This document shows positions 1,250 through 46,514 of a stretch of 64,000 nt of DNA, one piece after another (position 1 is the first letter of the stretch; every line of letters begins with the position of its first letter). Position numbers and translations under genes: made by a program. This DNA comes from Phyllobates terribilis (lineage: Eukaryota): positions 183,272,001 to 183,336,000 of the forward strand of contig NW_027362763.1 of NCBI RefSeq assembly GCF_046119375.1. The letters are read 5' to 3'. The notes below the pieces were generated by a model, which worked only from the letters and a program-made list of their open reading frames with translations, was not told the origin of the DNA and made no database searches.

Positions 1250-3888
1250 CAGTGGCATGTAAAAGTTTGGGCACCCCTGGTCAAAATTACTGTTGTTGTA
1301 AACAGTTAAGCAAGTTGAAGATGAAATGATCTCTAAAAGGCCTAAAGTTGAAGATGACACATATATTTTGTATTTTAGGCAAAAAAAATATATATACAGT
1401 ATAATACAGTGCTCAAAAAAATAAAGGGAACACACAAATAACACATCCTAGATCTGGATGAATGAAATATTCTCATTGAATACTTTGTTCTGTACAAAGT
1501 TGAATGTGCTGACAACAAAATCACACAAAAATCAGCAATGGAAATCAAATTTATTAACCAATGGAGGCCTGGATTTGGAGTCACCCCCAAAATTAAAGTG
1601 GAAAAACACACTACAGGCTGATCCAACTTTGATGTAATGTCCTTAAAACAAGTCAAAATGAGGCTCAGTATTGTGTGTGGCCTCCACGTGCCTGTATGAC
1701 CTCCCTACAACGCCTGGGCATGCTCCTGATGAGGTTGTGGATGGTCTCCTGTGGGATCTACTCCCAGACCTGGACTAAAGCTTCCGCCAACTCCTGGACA
1801 GTCTGTGGTGCGACGTGACATTGGTGGATTGAGCCAGACATGATGTCCCAGATGTGGTCAATCGGATTCAGGTCTGGGGAACGGGCGGGCCAGTCCATAG
1901 CTTCAATGCCTTCATCTTGTAGGAACTGCTGACACACTCCAGCCACATGAGGTCTGGCATTGTCCTGCATTAGGAGGAACCCAGGACCAACCGCACCAGC
2001 ATATGGTCTCACAAGGGGTCTGAGGATCTCATCTCGGTACTTAATGGCAGTCAGGCTACCTCTGGCGAGCACATGGAGGGATGTGCGGCCCTCCAAAGAA
2101 ATGCCACCCCACACCATTACTGACTCACTGCCAAACCGGTCATGCTGAAGGATGTTGCAGGCAGCAGATCGCTCTTCACGGCGTCTACAGACTATGTCAC
2201 GTCTGTCATATGTGCTCAATGTGAACTTGCTTTCATCTGTGAAGAGCACAGGGCGCCAGTGGCGACTTTGCCAATCCTGGTGTTCTGTGGCAAATGCCAA
2301 GCGTCCTGCACGGTATTGGGCTGTGAGCACAACCCCCATCTGTGAACATCGGGCCCTCATACCACCCTCATGGAGTCGGTTTCTAACCGTTTGTGCAGAC
2401 ACATGCACATTTGTGGCCTGCTGGAGGTCATTTTGCAGGGCTCTGGCAGTGCTCCTCCTGTCCCCCTTGCACAAAGGCGGAGGTAGCGGTCCTGCTGCTG
2501 AGTTGTTGCCCTCCTACGGCCCCCTCCATGTCTCCTGGTGTACTGGCCTGTCTCCAGGTAGTGCCTCCAGACTCTGGACACTACGCTGACAGACACAGCA
2601 AACCTTCTTGCCACAGCTCGCATGGATGTGCCATCCTGGATGAGCTGCACTACCTGAGTAACTTCTGTGGGTTGTAGAGTCCGTCTCATGCTACCACGAG
2701 TGTGAAAGCCCACCAACATTCAAAAGTGACCAAAACATCAGCCAGAAAGCATTGGTACTGAGATGTGGTCTGTGGTCCCCACCTGCAGAACCACTCCTTT
2801 ATTGAGGGTGTCTTGATAATTGCCAATAATTTCCATCTATTGTCTATTCCATTTGCACAACAGCATGTGAAATTGATTGTCATTCAGTGTTGCTTCCTAA
2901 GTGGACAGTTTGATATCACAGAAGTTTGATCCACTTGGAGTTATATTCTGTTGTTTAACTGTTCCCTTTATTTTTTTGAGCAGTATATATATATAGTCAT
3001 TTTTTTCATTTTAAAAATTAAAAAAAGGAAAATGGGCCTATGCAAAAGTTTGGGCACCCTTGGAGATTTGTGTGCTCAGATAACTTTGACCAAGGTTTCA
3101 GATCTTAATTAGCCTGTTAGGGTTATGTCTTGTTCACTATCATCGTTAGGAAAGGCCATGTGATACAAATTTCTCAGCTTTATAAAAACTCAGCCTCCTC
3201 AAGCTTGTGCCAAAAAACAGCAGCCATAGGTTCTTCTAAGCAGTTGCCTAGCACTCTGAAAATGAAAATGGCAGAGGCCGAAAAAGCAGGAGAAGGCTAT
3301 AAGAAGATGGCAAAGTGTTTTCAAGTTGCCCTTTCCTCAATTCAAAATGTAATTAAGAAATGGCAGTTACCAGGAACAGTGGAGGTCAAGGTAAGATCTG
3401 GAAGACAAAGCAAAATTTCAGTGAGAGCTGCTTGTAGGATAGCTAGAGAGGCAAATCAGAACCCCCGCCTGACTGCAAAAGACCTTCAGAAAGATTTAGC
3501 AGATTCTGGAGTTGTGGTACATTGTTCTACTGTTCAGAGACACCTCGGACAAATATGGCCATCATGGAAAAGTCATCAGAAAAAAAACTCTCCTGCGTCC
3601 TCACCATAAAATTCAGTGGCAGAAGTACATCTAAACAAGCCTGATGCATTTTGGAAACAAGTCCTGTGGACCGATGAGGTAAAAATAGAACTCTTTAGCC
3701 AAAATGATCAAAGGTATGTGTGGAGAAAAAAGGGCACAGAATTTCAGGAAAATAACATCTCACCAACCATTAAGCATGGGGGTGGATCAATCCTGCTTTG
3801 GGGTTGTGTTGCAGCCAATGGCACGAGGAACATTTCTCAAGTAGAGAGAAGAATAGATTCAATGAAATTTCAACAAATTCTTGATGCA
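1250..3888 (+). mobile_element. 3'-truncated Tc1-like element (IR-DR type), degenerate transposase ~3227-3888
   Basis: Left end CAGTGGCATGTAAAAGTTTGGGCACCC, with the same direct repeat again at ~3045. Translated fragments: GEGYKKMAKCF..RSGRQSKIS, WTDEVKIELF, KHGGGSILLWGC. Frameshifted; the catalytic C-terminus and right TIR are missing. Confidence 0.85.
1407..2985 (-). mobile_element. Full-length Tc1-like element with frameshifted DD34E-type transposase, inserted in the element above
   Basis: TIRs TA|CAGTGCTCAAAAAAATAAAGGGAAC and GTTCCCTTTATTTTTTTGAGCAGTA|TA. ORFs 2357-2719 (HTH) and 1758-2474 (FTDESKF, MQDNARPH, SPDLNPIDHIW). Confidence 0.92.
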
Positions 3889-5327
3889 AGAATTGGACTA
3901 GCAAGCACATGAGTCCTAGCCCTAGCAGTGATAATGTCCTAGTGATAAAACCTTAATTGTAAGTAAACAACAGCACATAGCCTAATAAGTGACACATTGC
4001 GGAAATCAGTGTCTTAGCCCCTATCTCCTGTTGTCTTCAAATTACATAGCAAAATCCTGCTGACAGATTCCCTTTAATTATGGTTAACGCTGATTTATAC
4101 CTCTACACGCAGGAGCGGCACAGCATGCTGAACCCTACCAATCTCTTACAACTGGTTGAGGGGACGAGGGGAGTAAGCTACTGCCATACAGCTCTGCTGG
4201 CAGCCTATCTACCTTGGGAACGTAGTATAGGGCATTTTGAAATACAACAAGTCCTATTCTTTTTCCTCTGACATCCGTAAACGAATGTCAGACAAGATTC
4301 AAAAACAAATTTGATGGTCAGCTGGTCCCACCGAAATTACCAGGTTCAACCAACTTTAGCTTAGTGTGAATGGCCACCTATAGAGAGCATAGAGCTCAGC
4401 ATTTCATCTGTCCCAATGATCTATTATTTGTGTAGGTCCTCACTATATGATCTTACACCTCGAGGATGCTTTATGTTTCTTTATTCTTCAATTAAACCAT
4501 TCCTGCTTTCAATGTTAAAGCAATGGACTAACAAAGAATAGATTGTCTGGCTGGAGATGGTGATACTGACTCCTTTATGGGCTTGCAACATCTAGAATAA
4601 GATGAAGCCTCCTGGCCAGGAAGGATTTAGTCAGTGCTCAATGCGGTATTGGTCAGCAGATTACTTTGTGGATATTGACTAGAACGCTCCATAGAGGGTC
4701 AGAAATGACTGCGCAATTGCAAAGCTCGGCTTCTGTACAGCTCCTTACTCTGCAGTGGTGTTAGCAGCATCCTTAGAGTTAACCTGCAATGAGCTCGCTC
4801 AACTCCCAAAGTAATAATAATGCCATTAATATTACATGAAAGCTGTGGTATAACCTTTGGGGACAGAAGAAGAAACGATGGCTCCGGTGTTATGTACGAT
4901 GGCAAATTTGTAAATTCATTTCCCTGCTAATAGTACAAAGCTGTGAAACAAGGTCAGAAGGGGCTTCCAGAGAGATAATAAATGTGTTTCATTGTGGAAC
5001 AGGAGCCGTACTCCGCAGATCTGCAGGGTCACAAGCTTTTCTTTTTTTCCTAAAAATTGTCAAAAATAAAATTTGAAGCAAAGCTGAAATTGGCCTGTGA
5101 GGCTGATATAAACTATCGGAGAAAAATGCACAAAGCACAGACCTCGTACACTACATTATACTACCCCGCTACCAGCATACGGCACAAGCCATAACTAAGC
5201 TATACAGAAGTCGGATGTTGCATCCTTATATACAGTGCGCAATTAAGACAACCAAAGAAGTACAGAAACAAAACCAGCAGCTGCTGCACCATAAGGCTGA
5301 AACAATCACCCCAAGAAGGCTTATAAC

Positions 5328-7716: not shown

Positions 7717-7872
7717 TGGTGCACGTCGCCTCGGCTGGATCAGTATCTGCCCTATAATATCCATTGCGGCACACACAGATCGGGGAGGCCTCGGCGGTAG
7801 AACGACTGTTGGCAGGACAGGGTGCACAGATTCCTAGGCCTTGATTAGCTTTAAACATGGCAGCAGGACAGG
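7717..7872 (-). CDS. ephb1: Internal exon (exon 4 equivalent) of ephrin type-B receptor 1, Cys-rich/EGF-like region
   Basis: Minus strand reads (A)CPAAMFKANQGLGICAPCPANSRSTAEASPICVCRNGYYRADTDPAEATCT(S), matching the EphB1 motif CPxNSRSxxEASPICxCRxGYYRAD. Acceptor is ttctctcttttctccAG (intron ends 7873) and donor is GTAAGT (7716-7711). Length is 156 nt, phase 1/1. Paralog assignment is from recalled sequence. Confidence 0.92.
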
Positions 7873-23245: not shown

Positions 23246-26200
23246 TTAGAGTGGATTATCTACAATGATATGTATAATGGCTCTGAACTTGGAGCGGGTG
23301 TAAATATTAAGACTTGGCATTCTGAAGTTTGGTAAAGTTGATTGGAAACCTCTCGGGAGGCTGCAATGGTGGAAACTTTGGCTACAAGCCAGTTTTTATT
23401 ATGTAACAAAGCTAATTCAAGGACATAAATAAAAAAAAAATTATTAGAAATGTATTAGAAACGCTATAGGGCCCACCTTAGGATTGTGGGGTCTGTGTAA
23501 TGGCGCACAGTGCCCGAGAAGGTGCCACTAATGGCTTGGCACACAAAGCCAGTGAACACCTCCAATCTCAATGCTGATTGAACAGAAGTATTAAATAGAC
23601 ATTGTACAGTAATATTATAATACTGTACATTAAATAGTATGTATGACCTGTGTTTACACAGTCATTGTACGGGCACTACTACTGGACATGATATTGTCAT
23701 TTCAGAAGTTTTATTGCTCTCAGTAACAGAAACATAATAATAATAATAATAATAATTTTGTAGATATGATGCCCTAAAATAGCTAACAAATAAAAAGAAA
23801 TCATGTTATGGAGCCAGCTTTCAAGACTTTCAGCTCTAAACTTCAATCTTGCTAAATTCAATTCATGCAGATTCGCTCCAATCAGTGGGGAAATTCAAAT
23901 TGTATCGAATAAATTCAGTGCACAATGAATTGGTTGGGAAGGGGTTAAGAAAATCTAATATTTCTTCTTGTTCCTCTACGTAATTGTTCCGCTACTGTCG
24001 GTGCTCATTTTATTCCATTCTTTCTTCCTTCCCGTCGGATCTTCCCTTCACTAGGCCCCATTATGCCCCACATCAACGAGCAGCAGATTCTGGTACCCTT
24101 CATTTAGTTAAAACATGAAAGTTTACTGATGGCTCCTTTGCCTGAAGTTCCACAGCACAAAGGCTGTCAGTCAAACAGGAGGAGGCGGTGCTGGGAGGGC
24201 AATAGAGCTGGAGTGACAGAGGCATATAAATAGTTTGGGGACGTGAAATAGCTCTAAAATTCCCTTTTAATGGGAAATTTTGATCTGCAAATTGGTCCAC
24301 AAAAACAAAAAAAGGACATGCCATAGACTATAAAGAGTACATGCTCTATCCATGAAAAAACGGCACAAGTATCTATGGATTTAGTCTAAGGGAAGCAAAA
24401 TAATAATCTTGTTGAAATTAAACATTTTAGCAGCTAGGGAATTACTGGCTAACATGGTACCAAATCCTTTTTTTTCTTTTGTTACTGCAGAATATGATGG
24501 AAGTGATAATATATTAGGTCAGACACTCCCTTCCCAGGAGATGTGCACCCAACATTGGCCACTGTCAGGATGAATGTCTAGGCATTCATATACCTTAGGG
24601 ACCCATTGTAGAAAAAGCATATACCAGTGCTTACTGGCCAGACCGAAGCTGAAAGAAAATACTTTTGCCCTCCGTCTGGTGAATGGAAGCTTATGGGAAT
24701 GTTACCGTATACGTCGGGAAAAGCTCCTGATGTATACCATCATGTTTTCCTGAAAATAAGCATGATTTTACGGGATTTTTGGAGTATGCTTGAAATATAA
24801 GCCCTACTCCAAAAATAAGCCCTACTTACAGTCAGGGCTGGCATTGGAGGTGAGAGGGGGGAAAACTGGGCAATTGCCCAGGGCCCCTCAAACATAGGGG
24901 CCTCCAGAGTTTCTATTCCGAAGTTAAGACTGCTTAAGGACCTTTAGTGACATCACAGTTTGCAACCATGATGTCACCAAAGGTCCTTCAACTGCGGAAG
25001 TCTATAGGAACTGAAGAGGAGACGGGCTGGTATGTACCATATGTACAGTGTGAGTATATACATGTGCATGTATGTGAAGTGTGTGTACAAACATGTGTGT
25101 GCGTGTGTGTGTGTATATATGCATGTGTATGTACAGAGATGATTATATTTGAATAAAGGATGATTTTTTGTTCAAGAATAAATGTAGATTGTTGTTCATG
25201 GAAAAAAAAGTATGAAATCCTCTAAGAATAAGCCCTAACCTATCTTTCAGAGCTAAAAATAATATGAGCCGGTCTTATTTTTGGAGAAAGCGGTTAAAGC
25301 TTAGGGCACATTATTTAGACAACTTTATGGAAATGTGCACCATACAGTATCGTGCTGTATTGGTATTTTTGCCATCCATACCAACATAATTTTTTTTTTG
25401 TAGTTTTTATGATAATGAGTTGCACGAAGTGTCAAATAATTGGCGGAATTTGTGTTTGACGATGACAGTAAAATTCCAACCATGCAGCTCACATCTTTGG
25501 CTGTCAATAGTTTGCCATTGGATATCATGAACAATCGTTTGTGTTTCATTTTGAAGCAATGGTTGTCTGAAATAACCAAAACCGGCTTTTTTCAGCGGAT
25601 ATTTATCTGATGTGTGTAATGCACACGCCCGGGCTGAGCGGCGTGTGCGTGTGATTCCACTGGGCCGTGCCGGAGAGTGAATGCCTGGAGGGGCGTAACT
25701 AGGTATTCACCCGATCCGACCAGGGTCGCACGACGGCATACGACGCCAGTGCACCAAGGAGGAACCGAGAAGAGGGACCAGGTGCTACTCCAGGACAGAC
25801 CCCGGACACGGCTGTTGACCCACACAGGGGAATACAGGAACAGACTGGTTAGGCTGGCGCACAGACTGGTGGGTATAGGCAGGCACGACTGGTATGCAGG
25901 CAGGCGGGTATGCAGGCAGGGGGGTACAGGCAAGCACAGCTAGAGTGCAGACAGGGAGACACTAGCAGGTAGGAACACAGGCGGGATAGGACCCAGTACA
26001 CACTGGGACTCAGGAACAATACAGGCAGAGGGGTACAGGCGAGCACAGCTAGAGTACAGAAAGGAAAGCACTAGCAGGTAGGGACACTGGCGGGATAGGA
26101 CCCAGTACACACTGGGACTCAGGAACAGAACCACAGATGTGGCGGACAAACACAGCAGAGTGAGGCCGTCCAGAGAGATGAGCGAGAACAGGGCAGGACA

Positions 26201-26460
26201 AGACCGCCTGGAGCGGTGAGCAAGAGCAGAGCAGGACAAGGCCGCCAGGAGCGGTGAGCACAGGGTCAGAGCTGAGCGAGACTGCCGGAGCAGTGAACAA
26301 GAGTAAAGCAGGACGAGGCCGCCTGGAGCGGTGAGCAAGAGTGGAGCAAGACTGCCGGAGCAGTGAGCAAAAGGATAAGAGCGGAGCGAGACTGCCGGAG
26401 CAGTGAGCAAAAGGGTCAGAGCGGAGCAAGGCTGCCGGAGCAGCGAGCAAAAGGGTCAGA

Positions 26461-26812
26461 GCAGGCCAGAACCGCCGGAGCGGTAAGCAAAGGAGTCAGA
26501 GCAGGCTAGAACCGCCGGAGCGGTGAGCAAAGGAGTCAGAGCAGGCTAGAACCGCCGGAGTGGTGAGCAAAGGAGTCAGAGCAGGCTAGAACCGCCGGAG
26601 CGGTGAGCAAAGGAGTAAGAGCAGGCTAGAACCGCCGGAGCGGTGAGCAAAGGAGTCAGAGCAGGCTAGAACCGCCGGAGCGGTAAGCAAAGGAGTCAGA
26701 GCAGGCTAGAACCGCAGGAGCGGTAAGCAAAGGAGTCAGAGCAGGCTAGAACTGCCGGAGCGGTGAGCAAAGGAGTCAGAGCAGGCTAGAACCGCCGGAG
26801 CGGTGAGCAAGG
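26461..26812. repeat. 40-bp minisatellite in the 3' LTR (9 units)
   Basis: Unit GCAGGCTAGAACCGCCGGAGCGGTGAGCAAAGGAGTCAGA. Confidence 0.95.
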
Positions 26813-27632
26813 CAGAGAAGGGGGGACTGGGCTCTGTTCACACGGAACAGACAGGAAGAGAAAGGCAGAGCCAGATACCCACAGGGTACTTGCAGTGAAG
26901 TAACGAGTGGACCACAAACTCACAAATGGGAGTACAGAGACAACAAGCAGGAGTTAGGTACAAGTTCAGACTCTGCAGAAAAAGGAAAGGAACGGACATA
27001 GAGGCAAAACAGGTAAAGGATAGGAGAGAGTTCAGACTGGAACTGAGTGTACGGAGGAGACCGACACTGCAGCGGGATACAGGAGCGGGTCTGGGAATAC
27101 GGGCCCCAGAGAGGCGGGACGAACAGGCAAGGAGCGAGTTCAGACAGGACAGACAAGATACAGGAGCGGGTCTAGGTAATCGGCCCCTAGAAGGCGGGAG
27201 GAACAGGCTAGGAGCGTGTTCAGACAGGACAGACAAGATACAGGAGCGGGTCTAGGTAATCAGCCCCTAGAAGGCAGGAGGAACAGGCTAGGAGCGTGTT
27301 CAGACAGGCCTGGAAATACAGCCTCCAGGATAGGCAGACAAGAGAACACAGAACGGGACCTGGCACCTTCAGAGTGCGAGCACACACTGAAAGAAACACT
27401 ATGCTCAGGCAGGGATTGATTGGAGCAGCTGAGCTATATAGCAGGTGACAGACAGCAATAGGCTGAGGACGCACAAGGGGTGTGACCCACAGCAGGTACA
27501 AAAAGCAGGAAGTGATCGGGCGCCGCCCTTTAGCAGCAGAAACAGACACAAACAGACAGCATGGAGGGAAGCCAGAGAGACATTCTGGACAGGAGATCAA
27601 GTGCGCGCTCTTGCACAGTGGGAGATGGACCA

Positions 27633-29692
27633 CTATGCAAGGACGCCGCCAGGTATGTTACAGTAACCCCCCCCCTTACGCCCCCTCTTCTTCAGGCCTG
27701 CCAGAATCTTCCGCAGGGAATTCGAGGGCCAATTCTTCACTTCGAAGAGATCACTTCCACTGTCCACCGGAAAAACTGGTCTCCTCTGGGTAGCTAGGAT
27801 GCTACCTCCCATCCAGCCACCCTTAGCAACAGACGAAACGGGTGGAGTACCAGGAACAGCACACAAGGAAGTCTCTCTCCACATATTTTCAGCTGGCACC
27901 CCAGAGGGTACAGGAGACAACTGGAAGTCCTCCACCGGGTTGGAGGGGGACAGAGACTTGGGGGTAATCTCTGCTTCGAGGTACATCTTGTCAAACTCAC
28001 AGGAAGAAATAGACGGGTTATCAGGTACATAATGAGGAAAAGTCACTGTCTCTTTGTTATCTGGTGGTACCCCGGAGGATTCAGGAAACAACTGGAGGTC
28101 CTCCGCCGGGTCAGAAGAGTGCAGAGGCTCAGAGAAAACATCTGCTTCAGAGTACACTAGGTCGGACTCACTGGACAAAGCAGGCGAGGTATCGGGTACC
28201 GAGTATAGGAAAGTCTCTGTCCATTCACCACCAGGTGGCACCCCGAAGGGTTCTGGAGACAACTGGCGGTCCTCCGCCTGGTCAGAGGGGTGTAGAGACT
28301 CACGGGTAACCTCTGCTTCAGAGTACACTAGGTCGGACTCACTTGACGAAGCAAGCGAGGTATCAGATCCAGGATATAGGAAAGTCTCTGTCCATTCACC
28401 ACCAGGTGGCACCCCGAAGGGTTCTGGAGACAACTGGAGGTCCTCCGCCTGGTCAGAGGGGTGTAGAGACTCATGGGTAACCTCTGCTTCAGAGTACACT
28501 AGGTTGGACTCAGTGGACGAAGCGAGCGAGATATCAGGTACAGAGTATAGGAGAGTCTCTGTCCTTTCACCACCAGGTGGCAGCCCGAAGGGTTCTGGAG
28601 ACAACTGGCGGTCCTCTGCCTGGTCAGAGGGGTGTAGAGACTCACGGGTAACCTCTGCTTCAGAGTACACTAGGATGGACTCAGTGGACGAAGCGAGCGA
28701 GGTATCAGGTACAGAGTATAGGAGAGTCTCTGTTCTTTCGCTTCCAGGTAGCACCCCGAAGGGTTCTGGAGACAACTGGAGGTCCTCCGCCTGGTCGGAG
28801 GGGTGTAGAGACTCGGGAGTAACCTCTGCTTCGGAGTACCCATTGTCAGGCTCACAGGACGAAGCGGACAAAGTATCGAGTACCGGGTGTAGAGAAGTCT
28901 CTCTCCATTTGTCATCGAGTGGTATCCCGGAGGATTCAGGAGGCAACAGGGGGTCCTCCGCCAGGTAGTAGAGGTGCACAGACTCTGAGGTAACCACAGC
29001 TTTGGAGCATCCTTGGACATGCACACCGGTTAAAGTGGGTGAAGCATCTGATGCCGGGTGCAGGAAGTTCCCATGTGTGGAGTCTGGATGGGCAGAAGTC
29101 TCTTCGGGCAGGAGAACTGGTGCATTACCCGTTGGGGCTTCTCCGGGATACAGGGAGATGAAGCTTCAGTAGGGACTTCAAGGTTGGGGTCAGGAGGTCT
29201 CAGGGAGGACAGACCCTGGCGTGACGGCTTGCCTCTACGTCTAGCACGTCTGGACTGCCTCTTGAGGTTGGGAGAAGTATTCCGGAAAGCGTAGTCACCC
29301 TGAGAGGATTCTGGGTGGGCAGTAGTCTCATTAGGCTGGAGGACTATTGCGCTACCCACACATATTACCCATTGGGGCTGCTCCGGGATATTGGGAAGTG
29401 AAGCTTCAGCAGGAGCCTCCGGGTTAGGATCATCGAAGACCATTAGAAAGGCCACCAGGAAGGCCATTAGGTCCAGAAGGATCGGATCCTGTGTTTCATA
29501 TAGGGGGTTGATCCATTCCAAGGCATCACCCGCCAGGTAAGACATAATGAATGCCACCTTAACCCGATCGGTGGGAAAACATAGAGGGTAGAACTTGAAG
29601 TGTAGCAAGCATTGCTCCACAAATGCACGACTTTGTCTTGAATCCCCATAATAACGTAGCGGATCCGCAGGAACGAGAGCAGATAGATCCAT
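27633..29692 (-). pseudogene. Gag capsid-like (PEG10/RTL/LDOC1-type) ORF plus acidic Pro/Ser/Glu repeat domain, one frameshift near 29125
   Basis: PLRYYGDSRQSRAFVEQCLLHF...FPTDRVKVAFIMSYLAGDALEWINPL...FDDP is a sushi-type gag. The frame of 27633-29024 is open upstream to NAPVLLPEETSAHP, where a 13-nt deletion relative to the sister repeat explains the shift. Confidence 0.8.
27790..29010 (-). repeat. 171-bp (57-aa) coding tandem repeat, about 6-7 units
   Basis: CTGCTTC anchor at 27971, 28142, 28313, 28484, 28655 and 28826, an exact 171-bp period. Confidence 0.95.
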
Positions 29693-30679
29693 CTGGACGG
29701 GTGCGTAATTCGCCTGGAACTCAGCTAAAGGGAAAAAAAAAATTATTTATTTATTTTAATGCATGTATTCGCTGGAAAACTTCTCAGAGAGCGAAGGCCG
29801 TGGGGCTCAACGGGAACCATGGCCTGAGCATGCTGTAATGCACACGCCCGGGCTGAGCGGCGTGTGCGTGTGATTCCACTGGACCGTGCCGGAGAGTGAA
29901 TGCCTGGAGGTGCGTAACTAGGTATTCACCCGATCCGACCAGGGTCGCACGACGGCATACGACGCCAGTGCACCAAGGAGGAACCGAGCAGAGGGACCAG
30001 GTGCTACTCCAGGACAGACCCCGGACACGGCTGTTGACCCACACAGGGGAATACAGGAACAGACTGGTTAGGCTGGCGCACAGACTGGTGGGTATAGGCA
30101 GGCACGACTGGTATGCAGGCAGGCGGGTATGCAGGCAGGGGGGTACAGGCAAGCACAGCTAGAGTGCAGACAGGGAGGCACTAGCAGGTAGGAACACAGG
30201 CGGGATAGGACCCAGTACACACTGGGACTCAGGAACAATACAGGCAGAGGGGTACAGGCGAGCACAGCTAGAGTACAGAAAGGAAAGCACTAGCAGGTAG
30301 GGACACTGGCGGGATAGGACCCAGTACACACTGGCACTCAGGAACAGAACCACAGATGTGGCGGACAAACACAGCAGAGTGAGGCCGCCCAGAGAGATGA
30401 GCGAGAACAGGGCAGGACAAGACCGCCTGGAGCGGTGAGCAAGAGCAGAGCAGGACAAGGCCGCCAGGAGCGGTGAGCAAAGGGTCAGAGCTGAGCGAGA
30501 CTGCCGGAGCAGTGAACAAGAGTAAAGCAGGACGAGGCCGCCTGGAGCGGTGAGCAAGAGTGGAGCAAGACTGCCGGAGCAGTGAGCAAAAGGATAAGAG
30601 CGGAGCGAGACTGCCGGAGCAGTGAGCAAAAGGGTCAGAGCGGAGCAAGGCTGCCGGAGCAACGAACAAAAGGGTCAGA

Positions 30680-31071
30680 GCAGGCCAGAACCGCTGGAGC
30701 GGTAAGCAAAGGAGTCAGAGCAGGCTAGAACCGCCAGAGCGGTGAGCAAAGGAGTCAGAGCAGGCTAGAACCGCCGGAGCGGTGAGCAAAGGAGTCAGAG
30801 CAGGCTAGAACCGCCGGAGCGGTGAGCAAAGGAGTAAGAGCAGGCTAGAACCGCCGGAGCGGTGAGCAAAGGAGTCAGAGCAGGCTAGAACCGCCGGAGC
30901 GGTAAGCAAAGGAGTCAGAGCAGGCTAGAACCGCCAGAGCGGTAAGCAAAGGAGTCAGAGCAGGCTAGAACCGCCGGAGCGGTAAGCAAAGGAGTCAGAG
31001 CAGGCTAGAACCGCCGGAGCGGTGAGCAAAGGAGTCAGAGCAGGCTAGGACCGCCGGAGCGGTGAGCAAGG
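30680..31071. repeat. 40-bp minisatellite in the 5' LTR (10 units)
   Basis: Same unit; the one extra copy accounts for the 40-bp length difference between the LTRs. Confidence 0.95.
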
Positions 31072-32283
31072 CAGAGAAGGGGGGACTGGGCTCTGTTCAC
31101 ATGGAACAGACAGGAAGAGAAAGGCAGAGCCAGATACCCACAGGGTACTTGCAGTGAAGTAACGAGTGGACCACAAACTCACAAATGGGAGTACAGAGAC
31201 AACAAGCAGGAGTTAGGTACAAGTTCAGACTCTGCAGAAAAAGGAAAGGAACGGACATAGAGGCAAAACAGGTAAAGGATAGGAGAGAGTTCAGACTGGA
31301 ACTGAGTGTACGGAGGAGACCGACACTGCAGCGGGATACAGGAGCGGGTCTGGGAATACGGCCCCCAGAGAGGCGGGACGAACAGGCAAGGAGCGAGTTC
31401 AGACAGGACAGACAAGATACAGGAGCGGGTCTAGGTAATCGGCCCCTAGAAGGCGGGAGGAACAGGCTAGGAGCGTGTTCAGACAGGACAGACAAGATAC
31501 AGGAGCGGGTCTAGGTAATCAGCCCCTAGAAGGCAGGAGGAACAGGCTAGAAGCGTGTTCAGACAGGCCTGGAAATACAGCCTCCAGGATAGGCAGACAA
31601 GAGAACACAGAACGGGACCTGGCACCTTCAGAGTGCGAGCACACACTGAAAGAAACACTATGCTCAGGCAGGGATTGATTGGAGCAGCTGAGCTATATAG
31701 CAGGTGACAGACAGCAATAGGCTGAGGACGCACAAGGGGTGTGACCCACAGCAGGTACAAAAAGCAGGAAGTGATCGGGCGCCGCCCTTTAGCAGCAGAA
31801 ACAGACACAAACAGACAGCATGGAGGGAAGCCAGAGAGACATTCTGGACAGGAGATCAAGTGCGCGCTCTTGCACAGTGGGAGATGGACCACTATGCAAG
31901 GACGCCGCCAGGTATGTTACAATGTGTATGGCAACTGGACCATAATATGGTACAAGACAAGACATTATACAGAGATGTACAAACAGAAAAAGAAAAATGG
32001 TGCTACAAACTATCTTACACATATAGCAACTTTATTAAATATAAGATATTATAAAAAATGTTGTTAAAAATAGAGTATCTCAATGGAGGGCTAACAACAA
32101 CCCCCCCTCAAGGCTTTAAACATTATATAGTTAGTATGCCCTCATATCTATTGAAGTACATTCCATAGTGGTGTACATATACATCATATAGAAGAGTATA
32201 GGATGAAAACTTACATAGTAATGATATGGAGCCTGTTAGGTATATAGCCCTGTGCCCCAACGCGCGTTTCACCCAGCTTCACG

Positions 32284-42781: not shown

Positions 42782-44446
42782 AGTATGATCGCAGTAAGAT
42801 CCAATTTTCCCGGATGAAGGGAATATGGGAAAAAAATTCTCCATTCTGTTAGTCAGTGAAAATCGAACTGTACTTGAATGCACTCAGATGTCATCCAAGT
42901 GCAGTCCAATGTTTTCCACTGACCCGATGGCTTGCATGGCAGAGTGTCATACAATAATAAGATCCAACTCCTGCACGCTGAAATATTTTTTTAGGACAGC
43001 CTCTGTCCGAGGAAAAAATCATGTACACGGCACAATAGAATAACATTGGTCGTGTGCAAGAGCCCTTAGGCTTCTCTATTGGACTTGATTAATGCTTTAT
43101 ATGCAGTAAATATTTTTGAAATTGCAGAAAAAGTTCCCAAATTTCTCACCTCCAAATTTTATAAGATGTGCACTCACCCCCTCCTCAGCTCTTTAAAAGT
43201 TGTGGCAATTTGAAGGAAGTGAACACCGATTCTGCTCTGGACCTGAAACATCAATCAGGCCCGTGGCAGCGCTTCCTCTTCTTTTTGTTATATTACAGTA
43301 TGTTTATGTGGTTTTTTTTTAGTAGTCGCACATATATCTCAGACCTAACGTGACGCGGGTAGAGCCGGCACTGCAATATGTCATATCCCAATGCTTGACA
43401 GATATCATCAAATACAAATTCTACATCTAAACTTCCTCCAGAGATGTATTTTACACCACTACAGCTGACACTTCTGCTCCTGCAGATAATTTCTTCCAGA
43501 ACGTTGTGTCGTTCTCCTCTACATCTGCTACAAATCTACTCGGTCAATAAATATAAAAGCCAAGCTACACAGCTCTGATACAACCGGATTTTCAGATAAG
43601 AGATACCACCTCCACAATCAATCCAGAAACTCTGTAGGATGAAAAACCCCACAAGTTCTTCATCAGGTACCTATTAGTGCTTGTCCAGCGCTCCACGTCG
43701 CCCCCTGTCTGTCACCAGTCATCTCTTCTTATGGTAGATTCAAGTGACTCCTGTGGCATAGACGGGATAATGCGATATGACATATGTGGTAGATCTGATG
43801 GGGCAGCCGCGGACACAAATGCCATCTTATCAGCTGGCAGTGTACATATGGCGTCCCGTCTCTCCTCCCTGCAGACCAGCTGCTCCCCACTTGACTCCTT
43901 ATCCCCATGCTGTCATCTCTTCTCTCTGTCACTATGATGCCAATTAACCTGTGTACTGGGACATTGCGGGAGAGAAGACCCTCAGCAAACATGCACTCTC
44001 TGCTGATTTATTCCTCCCTCTACTCAGCCTCTTAGCACCATGACGGCTGTGACAGCGGGCACATCCCAGCGACATATATCAGAGGTGTATTAATAATTAA
44101 TAAATGTACGTATTACTGGATGCAATTTACTCCCAAAATGCATATTTTCACTGGGCCAAAAAGAAATTCTAGTTTCACCATGTACATTTCCAATATATTC
44201 AGCACGTATAAACCAAACTAAAAATAGAATTCATGCAGTTATTTCAGATTTTTTGTTTTTGGAGTTAAATATGGATTGTGATTAGTGATGAGCGCAAGTG
44301 CTCGTTACTGGAGTTTGCCGAGGGTGCTCGGGTATGCACCGAGTATCGCGGGTGCTCGAGTGACGTGTTCGAGTCCCCGCGCCACCAGGTTCCCGACGCT
44401 GTTAGAAAGCCACAAAATGTGTAAGGGGTAAAAATCAGAATCTCAA

Positions 44447-44491
44447 TTTGCAGACACGGTGTTTTGGGCTATTGCCCCTCTTCAGTGCAAA
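44447..44491 (-). ncRNA. Hammerhead copy with a G12-to-A change (predicted inactive)
   Basis: Reverse complement reads TTTGCA-CTGAAGA-GGGGCAATAGCCC-AAAACACCGTGTC-TGCAAA; GAAA has become AAAA at 44465. Confidence 0.8.
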
Positions 44492-44724
44492 GTATGAGAA
44501 CTGATTTGGCTAGTTGAGTGGCTCTGCACTGAGATCTAAGGGGTAACGTTTCTCCTTGTGGAGAGTGACACACCGGCTCTGGCACGTCAAGGTAAGGAGG
44601 CTTATTCGTCGTGCAATGCTCCTCTGGGAAATTTAATATGTAAATTGCCTCTTCAGAGAAAAAGAGGACTCAAACTCTATAGCGAGAAACGTTACCCCTT
44701 AGACCTCACTCCAGAGCCTCTCAC

Positions 44725-44769
44725 TTTGCACTGACGAGGGCCAACAGCCCGAAACACTGTGTCTGCAAA
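44725..44769 (+). ncRNA. Type I hammerhead ribozyme, copy 1
   Basis: TTTGCA-CTGACGA-GGGC(CAACA)GCCC-GAA-ACAC(T)GTGT-C-TGCAAA. All core nucleotides present; predicted cleavage after C44763. Confidence 0.9.
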
Positions 44770-44902
44770 TTGAGATTCTGATTTGTCTTTTATCCTAAGT
44801 CATATTGCACGACTCGTTAAAGGATTGATTGTGACTTGTAGGATTGCTGCTTTCAAAAGATGGTGCTATAGAGTACAAGTCCTCTTTTTCTCTGAAGAGG
44901 CA

Positions 44903-44995
44903 ATTTGCATATTAAATTTCCCAGAGGAGCATTGCATGGCAAATAAGCCTCCTTACCTTGACGTGCCAGAGCTGGTCTGTCACTCTCTATAAGGA
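44903..44995 (+). promoter_or_regulatory. Candidate snRNA-type promoter module inside the 332-nt unit
   Basis: Perfect octamer ATTTGCAT (44903-10), then SPH/ZNF143-like TTCCCAGAGGAGCATTGC (44918-35; one extra nt versus consensus), then a weak PSE-like CTCTC(T/C)A(T/C)AAG near 44982. Confidence 0.4.
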
Positions 44996-45056
44996 GAAAC
45001 ATTACCCCTTAGATCTCAGTCCAGAGCCACTCAACTAGCCAAATCAGTTCTCATAC

Positions 45057-45101
45057 TTTGCACTGAAGAGGGGCAATAGCCCGAAACACCGTGTCTGCAA
45101 A
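45057..45101 (+). ncRNA. Type I hammerhead ribozyme, copy 2
   Basis: TTTGCA-CTGAAGA-GGG(GCAATAG)CCC-GAA-ACAC(C)GTGT-C-TGCAAA; predicted cleavage after C45095. Confidence 0.88.
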
Positions 45102-45891
45102 TTGAGATTCTGATTTGGCTTTTATCCTAAGTCATATTGCACGACTCGTTAAAGGGTTGATTGTGACTTGTAGGATTGCTGCCTCCAATAGGTGGCGCTA
45201 TAGAGTACAAGTCCTCTTTTTCTCTGAAGAGGCAATTTGCACACAAAATATGTAGAGATTGCAAGACAATCATGGGCAATCCCCGCATGTTTTGTGGCTG
45301 TCTAACACGTGGCCAAGGGGACGCGAACATCTCACCGGCGTCCCTACGATACTCAGTGCATACCCGAGCACCCAAGGCAAACTAAAGTAACGAGCACTTG
45401 CACTCATCACAACTAATTGGGATGAGATAATACATCAGATCTCCGTGAAGTCCCATGTAGAACCCGATGATATAGAATATCATAATGAACTGTGCCTTAG
45501 GGTCTGATTACCGGGACTGATCGGCGGCTCTAAATATCTACCGATTGGCGGTTGTTTATTTGCTGTTTACATAGGCAGACTGCTTACTAAGATGAGAACT
45601 GACCGATAAATTGCTCTTTGCGCCTAAGCTACTATTGTTCTCGGCAGCACAATTCATGTTTACACAGGACGATGTGCTGTCGAGAACAATAATTATTTTT
45701 AAGCCTGCTTAAAAATCATTTCACCAGACAATCGAGCATTTTGCTCATTTAGCGGGTGATCAGCAGCCAGTTTACACTGCAGGATTGTCGGGAAAGAGCG
45801 TGGTCCTAGAAACGTTCACGATAACCTTTCAGTGTAAATGCGCGTTAAGTCATCTACTAAACATAACTGACACTTAAAACTGTATACGTAA

Positions 45892-46450
45892 AGGGGTTCT
45901 CCCATGAACAAAAGTACAGTTTAATCAATAGATCTTAGAACAATAATAAGTTCTACAATTGGATGTGTTTAAATAAAAAGTTCCTGTGCTGAGATAATCT
46001 TATAAATGTGCCGCTGCTGTGTACTGTGTAATGGCTGTGTCTGACCGTGCAGGAACATGGTCTGATCATACCACATCTCCTGGGCAGGGGAGGAAGAAAG
46101 AGAGTATACAGACAGGACAGCACAGGATCACAGCTGATTCTTTTTCTGTAAGGTAGAACATTTCCCTGCCTGTTTTTAAACAATGTTTTACCTCAAAGAA
46201 AGAATTATTTGTGATCCCGTGCTGTAATGTCTGTATACTCTCTTGCATCCGCCCCTGCCCAGGAGCTGTGGTATGATCAGACCATGTTCCTGTACGGTCA
46301 GAGACAGCCATTACACAGTACACAGCAGGGGCACATATATAAGATTATCTCAGCACAGGGACATTTTAATTAAACTCATCCAATTGTGGAAATTATTATT
46401 ATTCCAAGATCTATTGATTAAAATTAACTTTTGTTCGTGGGAAAACCCCT
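45892..46450. mobile_element. Palindromic T2-type MITE
   Basis: AGGGGTTCTCCCATGAAC...GTTCGTGGGAAAACCCCT|TTAA. Confidence 0.88.
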
Positions 46451-46514
46451 TTAAGGAAATAAAGCTGAGGATCAGCTGACAGGACTGACATCTGTCTGAG
46501 ATGGTTTAGTGAAT

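Follow-up and report, generated by a model that had tools for sequence, protein, structure and literature searches.

Insertion ends of a 332-nt hammerhead repeat in the frog Phyllobates terribilis point to a Penelope-type route of insertion

In a stretch of DNA from the frog Phyllobates terribilis (hereafter the window: all 64,000 nucleotides analysed, whose numbering is used throughout), a 332-nt unit with hammerhead motifs stands in tandem and once inverted. The question raised by this locus is by which enzyme, and from which form of RNA, a repeat that encodes no protein could have been inserted in such an arrangement.

The locus and its host sequences

A descriptor scan of both strands found exactly two type I hammerheads in all 64 kb, the same two that the initial annotation had described, with 0 matches in 50 block shuffles of the window. 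Hammerhead 1 (44725–44769, plus strand) is typical of the family; hammerhead 2 lies at 45057–45101, also on the plus strand. Their CUGA starts are at 44731 and 45063, and the predicted cuts fall after 44763 and 45095, 332 nt apart. Both possess the full core (CUGANGA, GAAA, NUH), a 6-bp stem I and the palindromic stem III ACAC-N-GTGT with its 1-nt loop, as had been described. Stem II has four pairs in hammerhead 1 but three, not four, in hammerhead 2. The palindromic stem III can pair between two hammerhead copies, with a predicted duplex of −7.4 kcal/mol. Around hammerhead 2, stem I is prolonged to about 24 pairs in the predicted fold (45037–45120, plus strand; z = −4.6, 0 of 200 shuffles as stable), and two of these pairs show compensatory changes in the sister subfamily described below. 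The 332-nt unit folded as a circle was no more stable than shuffles (z −1.0), and neither was the segment between the two end sites. The Rfam check that had been recommended gave no hammerhead match over 10 kb; over 431 nt the RAGATH-1 hammerhead scored 19.4 bits, below the gathering score of 56.3. A sigma-70 promoter scan of the window returned nothing, the bacterial model being irrelevant to a vertebrate host.

The whole insertion covers 818 bp (44424–45241). Its right end was correctly placed by the initial annotation, which had started the element at 44431; the insert begins 7 nt further left. It is flanked by a duplicated target at 44411–44423 and 45242–45254 (both plus strand), which proved real, with a length of 13 bp and one mismatch rather than the 14 bp first given. 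From the left, the insertion opens with an 8-nt stub on the minus strand (44424–44431), corresponding to unit positions 240–249 at end site 2 and measuring 10 nt if the last two bases of the target duplication are counted. The inverted arm follows (44432–44683, minus strand; unit positions 102–332 and 1–21), a two-haplotype mosaic 94% complementary to the forward copy. Within the arm lies the announced third hammerhead (44447–44491, minus strand), which is predicted to be inactive, its core GAAA being mutated to AAAA. On the plus strand come a partial first forward unit (44684–44763) with a 22-nt deletion present in no other locus compared, the complete 332-nt unit (44764–45095), delimited by the predicted cuts, and a partial third unit (45096–45241) which stops at end site 1. 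In the complete unit, end site 1, the commonest 3′ end in the family (unit 146–150), is found at 44909–44913 and end site 2 (unit about 247–253) at 45010–45016, both on the plus strand. The direct repeat has 92% identity at a spacing of 332.

The insertion splits a MITE (44283–45412, limits approximate), about 310 bp long when empty, of which the genome holds 2,400 first-look candidates. In 11 other aligned copies the target is present once, showing that the 13-bp duplication arose on insertion, and the nesting originally described was thus borne out. A second long inverted repeat at 45889–46453, with 260-nt arms of 89% identity, is probably another MITE.

An EphB-type receptor exon was found by its cysteine pattern at 7717–7872 on the minus strand, with EphB2 as the best solved relative, and a ligand-binding exon, also minus, is located about 80 kb beyond the right end of the window. 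No Eph kinase or ligand-domain motif was present within the 64 kb. Since these exons lie on either side, both minus, the retrozyme insertion is intronic and antisense. The intron proposed earlier therefore stands as that of an EphB-type gene, while the paralogue name EphB1 is kept as an assumption. Both intact ribozymes run antisense to the host gene, whose pre-mRNA therefore cannot be the plus-strand transcript proposed for the double hammerhead; the mutated third hammerhead is the only one in the sense of the host gene. The insertion is probably a passive relic, with no evident effect on the host gene. Elsewhere in the window, two long direct repeats (about 25.9–27.3 kb and 30.1–31.6 kb, within 25879–31567), built of 16-, 109-, 40- and 80-nt tandem units, surround a 171-nt tandem array with a 510-codon open frame. 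Broken transposase-like frames, presumably of the Tc1 type, are visible at 1758–2719 (minus strand) and 3121–3912 (plus strand).

A dispersed family of the retrozyme kind

First-look candidates for the 332-nt unit number 3,929 and are distributed over all large contigs. A 33-place core pattern had 1,180 exact matches genome-wide (control, 0) and a 31-mer at end site 1 had 2,628; the copy-number check proposed at the outset thus revealed thousands of copies. The copies diverge on average by 3.8% from the column majorities. A sister subfamily (loci L264–L293 and L060), about 75% identical and with 938 exact core matches, has a unit of about 318–332 nt and a GGGG/CCCC stem II. The core pattern with another stem II start had 205 matches, and the 100 listed all appear to belong to this same superfamily.

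Comparison of the two subfamilies bears on the stems, whose covariation had also been proposed as a check. Pair 4 of stem II is C-G in the main subfamily and G-C in the sister, and in the extended stem I of the sister two pairs differ, U-A being replaced by C-G at one (23 of 30) and by A-U at the other (16 of 30). The covariation score of 29 distinct rows was above all 500 shuffles and all slid controls, with two qualifications: the sister rows were chosen for a changed first stem II base, which biases that pair, and stem III, which does not vary and was itself part of the search pattern, is uninformative. Support for the stems from covariation is thus real but thin, amounting to three compensatory events on one branch.

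The element has neither a coding frame, as originally annotated, nor an LTR; its copies are many and carry target duplications longer than 4 bp. Its unit lies within the 150–400-nt retrozyme range, with one hammerhead per unit and two or more in a row. This supports its assignment, as a sequence, to the protein-free non-LTR retrozymes with dimer-type hammerheads, a known kind with a predicted ribozyme, as first suggested. Like axolotl Rtz331/353 and newt satellite 2, it is a protein-free tandem unit of about 330 nt with one type I hammerhead each, a weak, palindromic stem III of the kind suited to cleavage as a dimer, a GC content below 50% and target duplications longer than 4 bp (PMC7229834); the likeness is one of sequence, cleavage and circles being predictions here. 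Stem III is made of 3 bp and a 1-nt loop in the frog, compared to one pair and a tetraloop in the metazoan retrozymes of that paper. Unlike the latter, the frog copies are mostly of one to two units and dispersed, and in the passages of PMC7229834 consulted we found no description of the fixed ends and inverted arms presented below.

The family also resembles in layout the vertebrate retrozymes studied in Xenopus and other species, with an amphibian mean unit of 316 bp, few units per locus and many intronic copies; non-LTR retrozymes were present in all seven amphibians surveyed (bioRxiv 10.64898/2026.07.22.740005). The proposal of an undescribed frog family must be restricted accordingly: the kind is already described in amphibians. 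A related family may be contained in the supplements of the same preprint.

The comparison with satellite 2 had also suggested a locally amplified array, and the array growth modelled in bioRxiv 10.64898/2026.07.22.740005 suggests a satellite reading. Amplification by unequal crossover would agree with two units of one locus that differ at 2 of 332 positions, and with the six rare variants that the window's inverted arm has in common with the neighbouring unit. The copies are, however, dispersed over all large contigs with a median forward length of about 310 nt, and bear target duplications and fixed ends; only 4 of the 80 position-ordered loci defined below are longer than two units. As the principal means of spread, local amplification is thus largely refuted: the element is a dispersed retroposon and not satellite DNA.

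Several observations extend beyond single loci. Contigs of four runs presumed to be RNA cover the unit without flanks, with strand, ends and level unreadable, and were left out of the evidence. Compared with 44380–45300, the contigs of these four runs, which bear four different organism codes, contained related copies of 85–99% identity; the family probably extends to related species. Ten identical hammerhead matches (L250–L259) are spaced about 160–310 kb apart on contig C1 (539.7–541.5 Mb), which suggests a very large tandem segmental repeat. Loci L107 and L108, 1.2 Mb apart, represent one two-armed insertion in an inverted segmental duplication.

Fixed insertion ends, their pairing and the enzyme

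The ends were analysed in three sets. One comprises 28 top-hit loci; the 80 position-ordered loci of the second derive from the 100 leading entries among the 1,180 core matches, and the 66 loci of the third from the 100 leading entries among the 2,628 site-1 matches. The last two sets come from the first part of contig C1 and include a few segmental duplicates. A sharp distribution of 3′ ends was observed in the 80 loci, with 58 ends at unit 144–158 (site 1) and 11 at unit 247–260 (site 2). Together, 69 of 80 ends fell in windows representing 8.7% of the unit; 10 others were elsewhere and one was in an inverted piece. At site 1 the exact ends concentrate at unit 146–150. The 5′ ends were scattered, only 5 of 53 being within the site windows. 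An inverted 5′ arm existed in 27 of the 80 loci, and 21 of these arms begin at a site. The same two end sites were used in 20 of 30 loci of the sister subfamily. Target duplications of 10–17 bp (mode 13) were recognised at 60 of 159 loci, compared to 0 of 400 mismatched flank pairs. Of 56 targets, 24 had AAAT at the right edge and 14 had ATTT at the left edge, against a background of about 9.5%. Among scorable junctions (28 of 52), microhomology averaged 1.9 nt, where 0.9 is expected by chance.

The outer ends of insertions with two arms follow a rule. Forty-four loci consist of one arm and one main segment, and in 40 of them the arm has an overlap of at least half with the main segment. Both outer ends lie in site windows in 26 loci, and all of these (26/26 scorable) combine site 1 with site 2, an outcome with a probability of 1e-7 under random pairing. 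The other 18 have at least one end outside the site windows. The window locus was scored among these others; it would obey the rule if its 8-nt stub is counted. The longest array among the sampled loci (L324:6409–8771, contig C1, about 4.862–4.865 Mb), made of six tandem units and an inverted arm, is one insertion with a single 14-bp target duplication and ends at sites 1 and 2. The two fixed end positions and their pairing rule are absent from the initial annotation.

Fixed 3′ ends with an optional tail, 5′ truncation, an inverted 5′ arm and an AT-rich, duplicated target are, at the level of the family, an anatomy of the Penelope type. We consider that the retrozyme is inserted in the Penelope manner by a borrowed Penelope-like reverse transcriptase/GIY-YIG enzyme, with a probability of roughly 80%. 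The Penelope-like character of the ends had already been perceived at the window locus. The Anolis Poseidon protein, predicted to be dimeric, nicks and extends both strands, prefers ATT, and uses two internal RNA start sites which match the genomic ends (PMC11167929). The frog repeat similarly presents two putative internal start sites downstream of the hammerhead, an AT-rich target and the probable use of both strands (PMC11167929), together with the optional tail at one end, the inverted 5′-truncated arm and the partial tandems of Penelope-like elements (PMC3846280, PMC8557442, PMC4209133); the tail on one inverted repeat is an old observation (PMC3846280, PMC8557442). Retrozymes have been called non-autonomous Penelope derivatives, and the Xenopus families share that proposed origin (bioRxiv 10.64898/2026.07.22.740005). 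The text of that study argues from co-occurrence and pLTR similarity, and holds no insertion-end analysis. Here, unlike in the Xenopus families, it is the end anatomy that points to Penelope-type insertion, no pLTR relative having been found in 60 loci sampled out of thousands of candidates. The frog repeat also departs from Penelope-like elements in having no coding frame, a canonical rather than a minimal hammerhead, and two ends about 100 nt apart instead of 30–40.

Mobilisation by a LINE (L1, CR1 or RTE) instead of a Penelope-like enzyme would account for part of this record, as L1 too produces target duplications of 10–17 bp, 5′-truncated copies and 5′ inversions. The frog ends, however, have neither a poly(A) nor a simple-repeat tail, and the target preference is symmetric. 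The arms, moreover, have fixed starting sites and in 40 of 44 loci show the overlap of at least half with the main segment, which is unlike L1 twin priming. A LINE is thus a highly improbable agent.

A rather unlikely alternative keeps the Penelope-like enzyme and makes the repeat the terminal repeat (pLTR) of an autonomous element, whose copies would be 5′-truncated and whose full-length masters would be unsampled. Fixed ends, an inverted arm and a one-end tail are hallmarks of pLTRs (PMC3846280, PMC8557442), 24 of the 57 retrozyme families in Xenopus have matches among known elements, chiefly pLTRs (bioRxiv 10.64898/2026.07.22.740005), and GIY-YIG elements are numerous in the frog genome. 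On the other hand, copies that exceed one unit continue into a further unit and never into a shared coding body, and apart from duplications and widespread host repeats, sets of 109 and 66 loci showed no 5′ flank in common. A unit near the end of one Penelope ORF was 700 nt off and behind that element's own end. By eye, the sampled Penelope-like families carry other, minimal hammerhead-like motifs.

A frame for reverse transcriptase plus GIY-YIG between pLTRs was looked for and not found with the unit. The unit was not the terminal repeat among the 3′ ends listed for 30 of 63 scored GIY-YIG loci (4,370 candidates), nor in 30 of 150 loci of an abundant GIY-YIG family (28,580 candidates). Four loci of the partner search (L101, L297, L310 and L321) hold the unit as an apparent separate insertion. 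A tblastn search of 220 family loci gave matches in 58, most of them to unrelated repeats; L113 was examined in full. In the abundant GIY-YIG family (L294–L323, the 28,580 being first-look candidates), the 3′ end contains a minimal hammerhead-like motif; by eye, there are apparently two such ends, about 30 nt apart. The 3′ ends of a young GIY-YIG family (several of L075–L100), whose copies are 96–99% identical, fall into two classes separated by about 85 nt, and its hammerhead-like motif is degenerate and contains a CGCG palindrome.

Several findings count against the Penelope-type model. No partner element was present among the sampled loci, and the two end sites are about 100 nt apart, compared to 30–40 nt in described Penelope tails. 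The slight junction microhomology contrasts with the Anolis enzyme, which started without homology, and insertion in the Anolis work was independent of ribozyme cleavage (PMC11167929). The circular fold has no extra stability, and the agreement between units of a locus lies under the single-template value, with haplotype mosaics, as detailed below.

The template RNA and the meaning of the ends

The ribozyme cut is not the end of the copies: 35 of 39 site-1-anchored copies that reach the cut read through it, and a cut linear monomer is therefore not the main template. In the mechanism that we propose, a dimeric Penelope-like enzyme acting in trans would nick the two strands of an AT-rich, palindromic target with a stagger of about 13 bp. 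Each nick would prime reverse transcription at one of two internal RNA sites (unit ~148 and ~250), site 1 serving one strand and site 2 the other, and the two cDNAs would join head to head, or only one would survive. The template RNA would be continuous across the ribozyme cut, as a ligated circle or an uncut multimer. Internal initiation has been proposed for Penelope-like insertion (PMC11167929), as has self-priming on antisense RNA (PMC3846280), and circles have been proposed as templates of more-than-unit copies (PMC4209133, PMC7229834).

Alleles at diagnostic sites bear on the choice between the two forms. Adjacent units share the minor allele in 64 of 92 cases, and arm and main segment in 30 of 44, compared to 15% between loci; one lineage usually supplies both ends of an insertion. 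Within-locus agreement was 0.90–0.92, whereas a single monomer template predicts 0.955, and a succession of subfamilies in time would also raise this agreement. The six-unit array is a haplotype mosaic whose units differ at subfamily-diagnostic sites. In the window, the inverted arm shows four alleles of another haplotype at unit 112–227; the six rare variants in common with the adjacent unit lie at unit 251–314, and possibly reflect later copying between the arms.

We slightly favour a ligated circle, made by dimer-dependent hammerhead cleavage, as the template. A serious contender, held somewhat below even odds, is an RNA made from a few master arrays as a linear multimer and left uncut, with no circles involved and the hammerhead now a passenger. 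The mixed haplotypes of the arrays agree with it, as does some excess of 5′ ends at unit 3–29, such as stalling at the long stem could produce. The Anolis system did not depend on its ribozyme (PMC11167929), and cleavage in vitro was observed for one of nine Xenopus dimers, the other eight remaining without it (bioRxiv 10.64898/2026.07.22.740005). Against the multimer, subfamilies that differ by 25% have retained the core and stems, with compensatory changes that number only three. No master array was present among the sampled loci, the longest array, of six units, being itself an insertion, and internal starts would shorten linear templates at every round. The search for back-spliced reads proposed earlier cannot discriminate between the two, because a circle junction is identical in sequence to the genomic tandem junction.

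With the ligated circle as template, we tentatively advance a more specific idea, with more doubt than confidence. One RNA circle may offer two start sites 100 nt apart, one for each subunit of the dimeric enzyme on opposite target strands, each subunit running through the ligated ribozyme junction. If true, such twin internal initiation would explain how tandem arrays come from a single insertion, as well as the head-to-head inversion and the one-end tail of Penelope-like elements, and the 332-nt RNA would offer a minimal substrate, acting in trans, on which to test it.

The novelty is not in the retrozyme class; it is in the unusually clean mechanistic record kept by the insertion ends. We found no analysis of retrozyme insertion ends in the literature, mainly the freely readable papers, supplements aside. 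The significance is carried by the end-pairing rule and not by the window locus. The open questions addressed are how animal hammerhead repeats spread and how the inverted arm and one-end tail of Penelope elements arise. The earlier link from retrozymes to Penelope consisted of co-occurrence and similarity, to which this family adds evidence from the insertion ends. The strict rule of one end each (26/26), in a small non-coding RNA, is suited to the existing in vitro assay.
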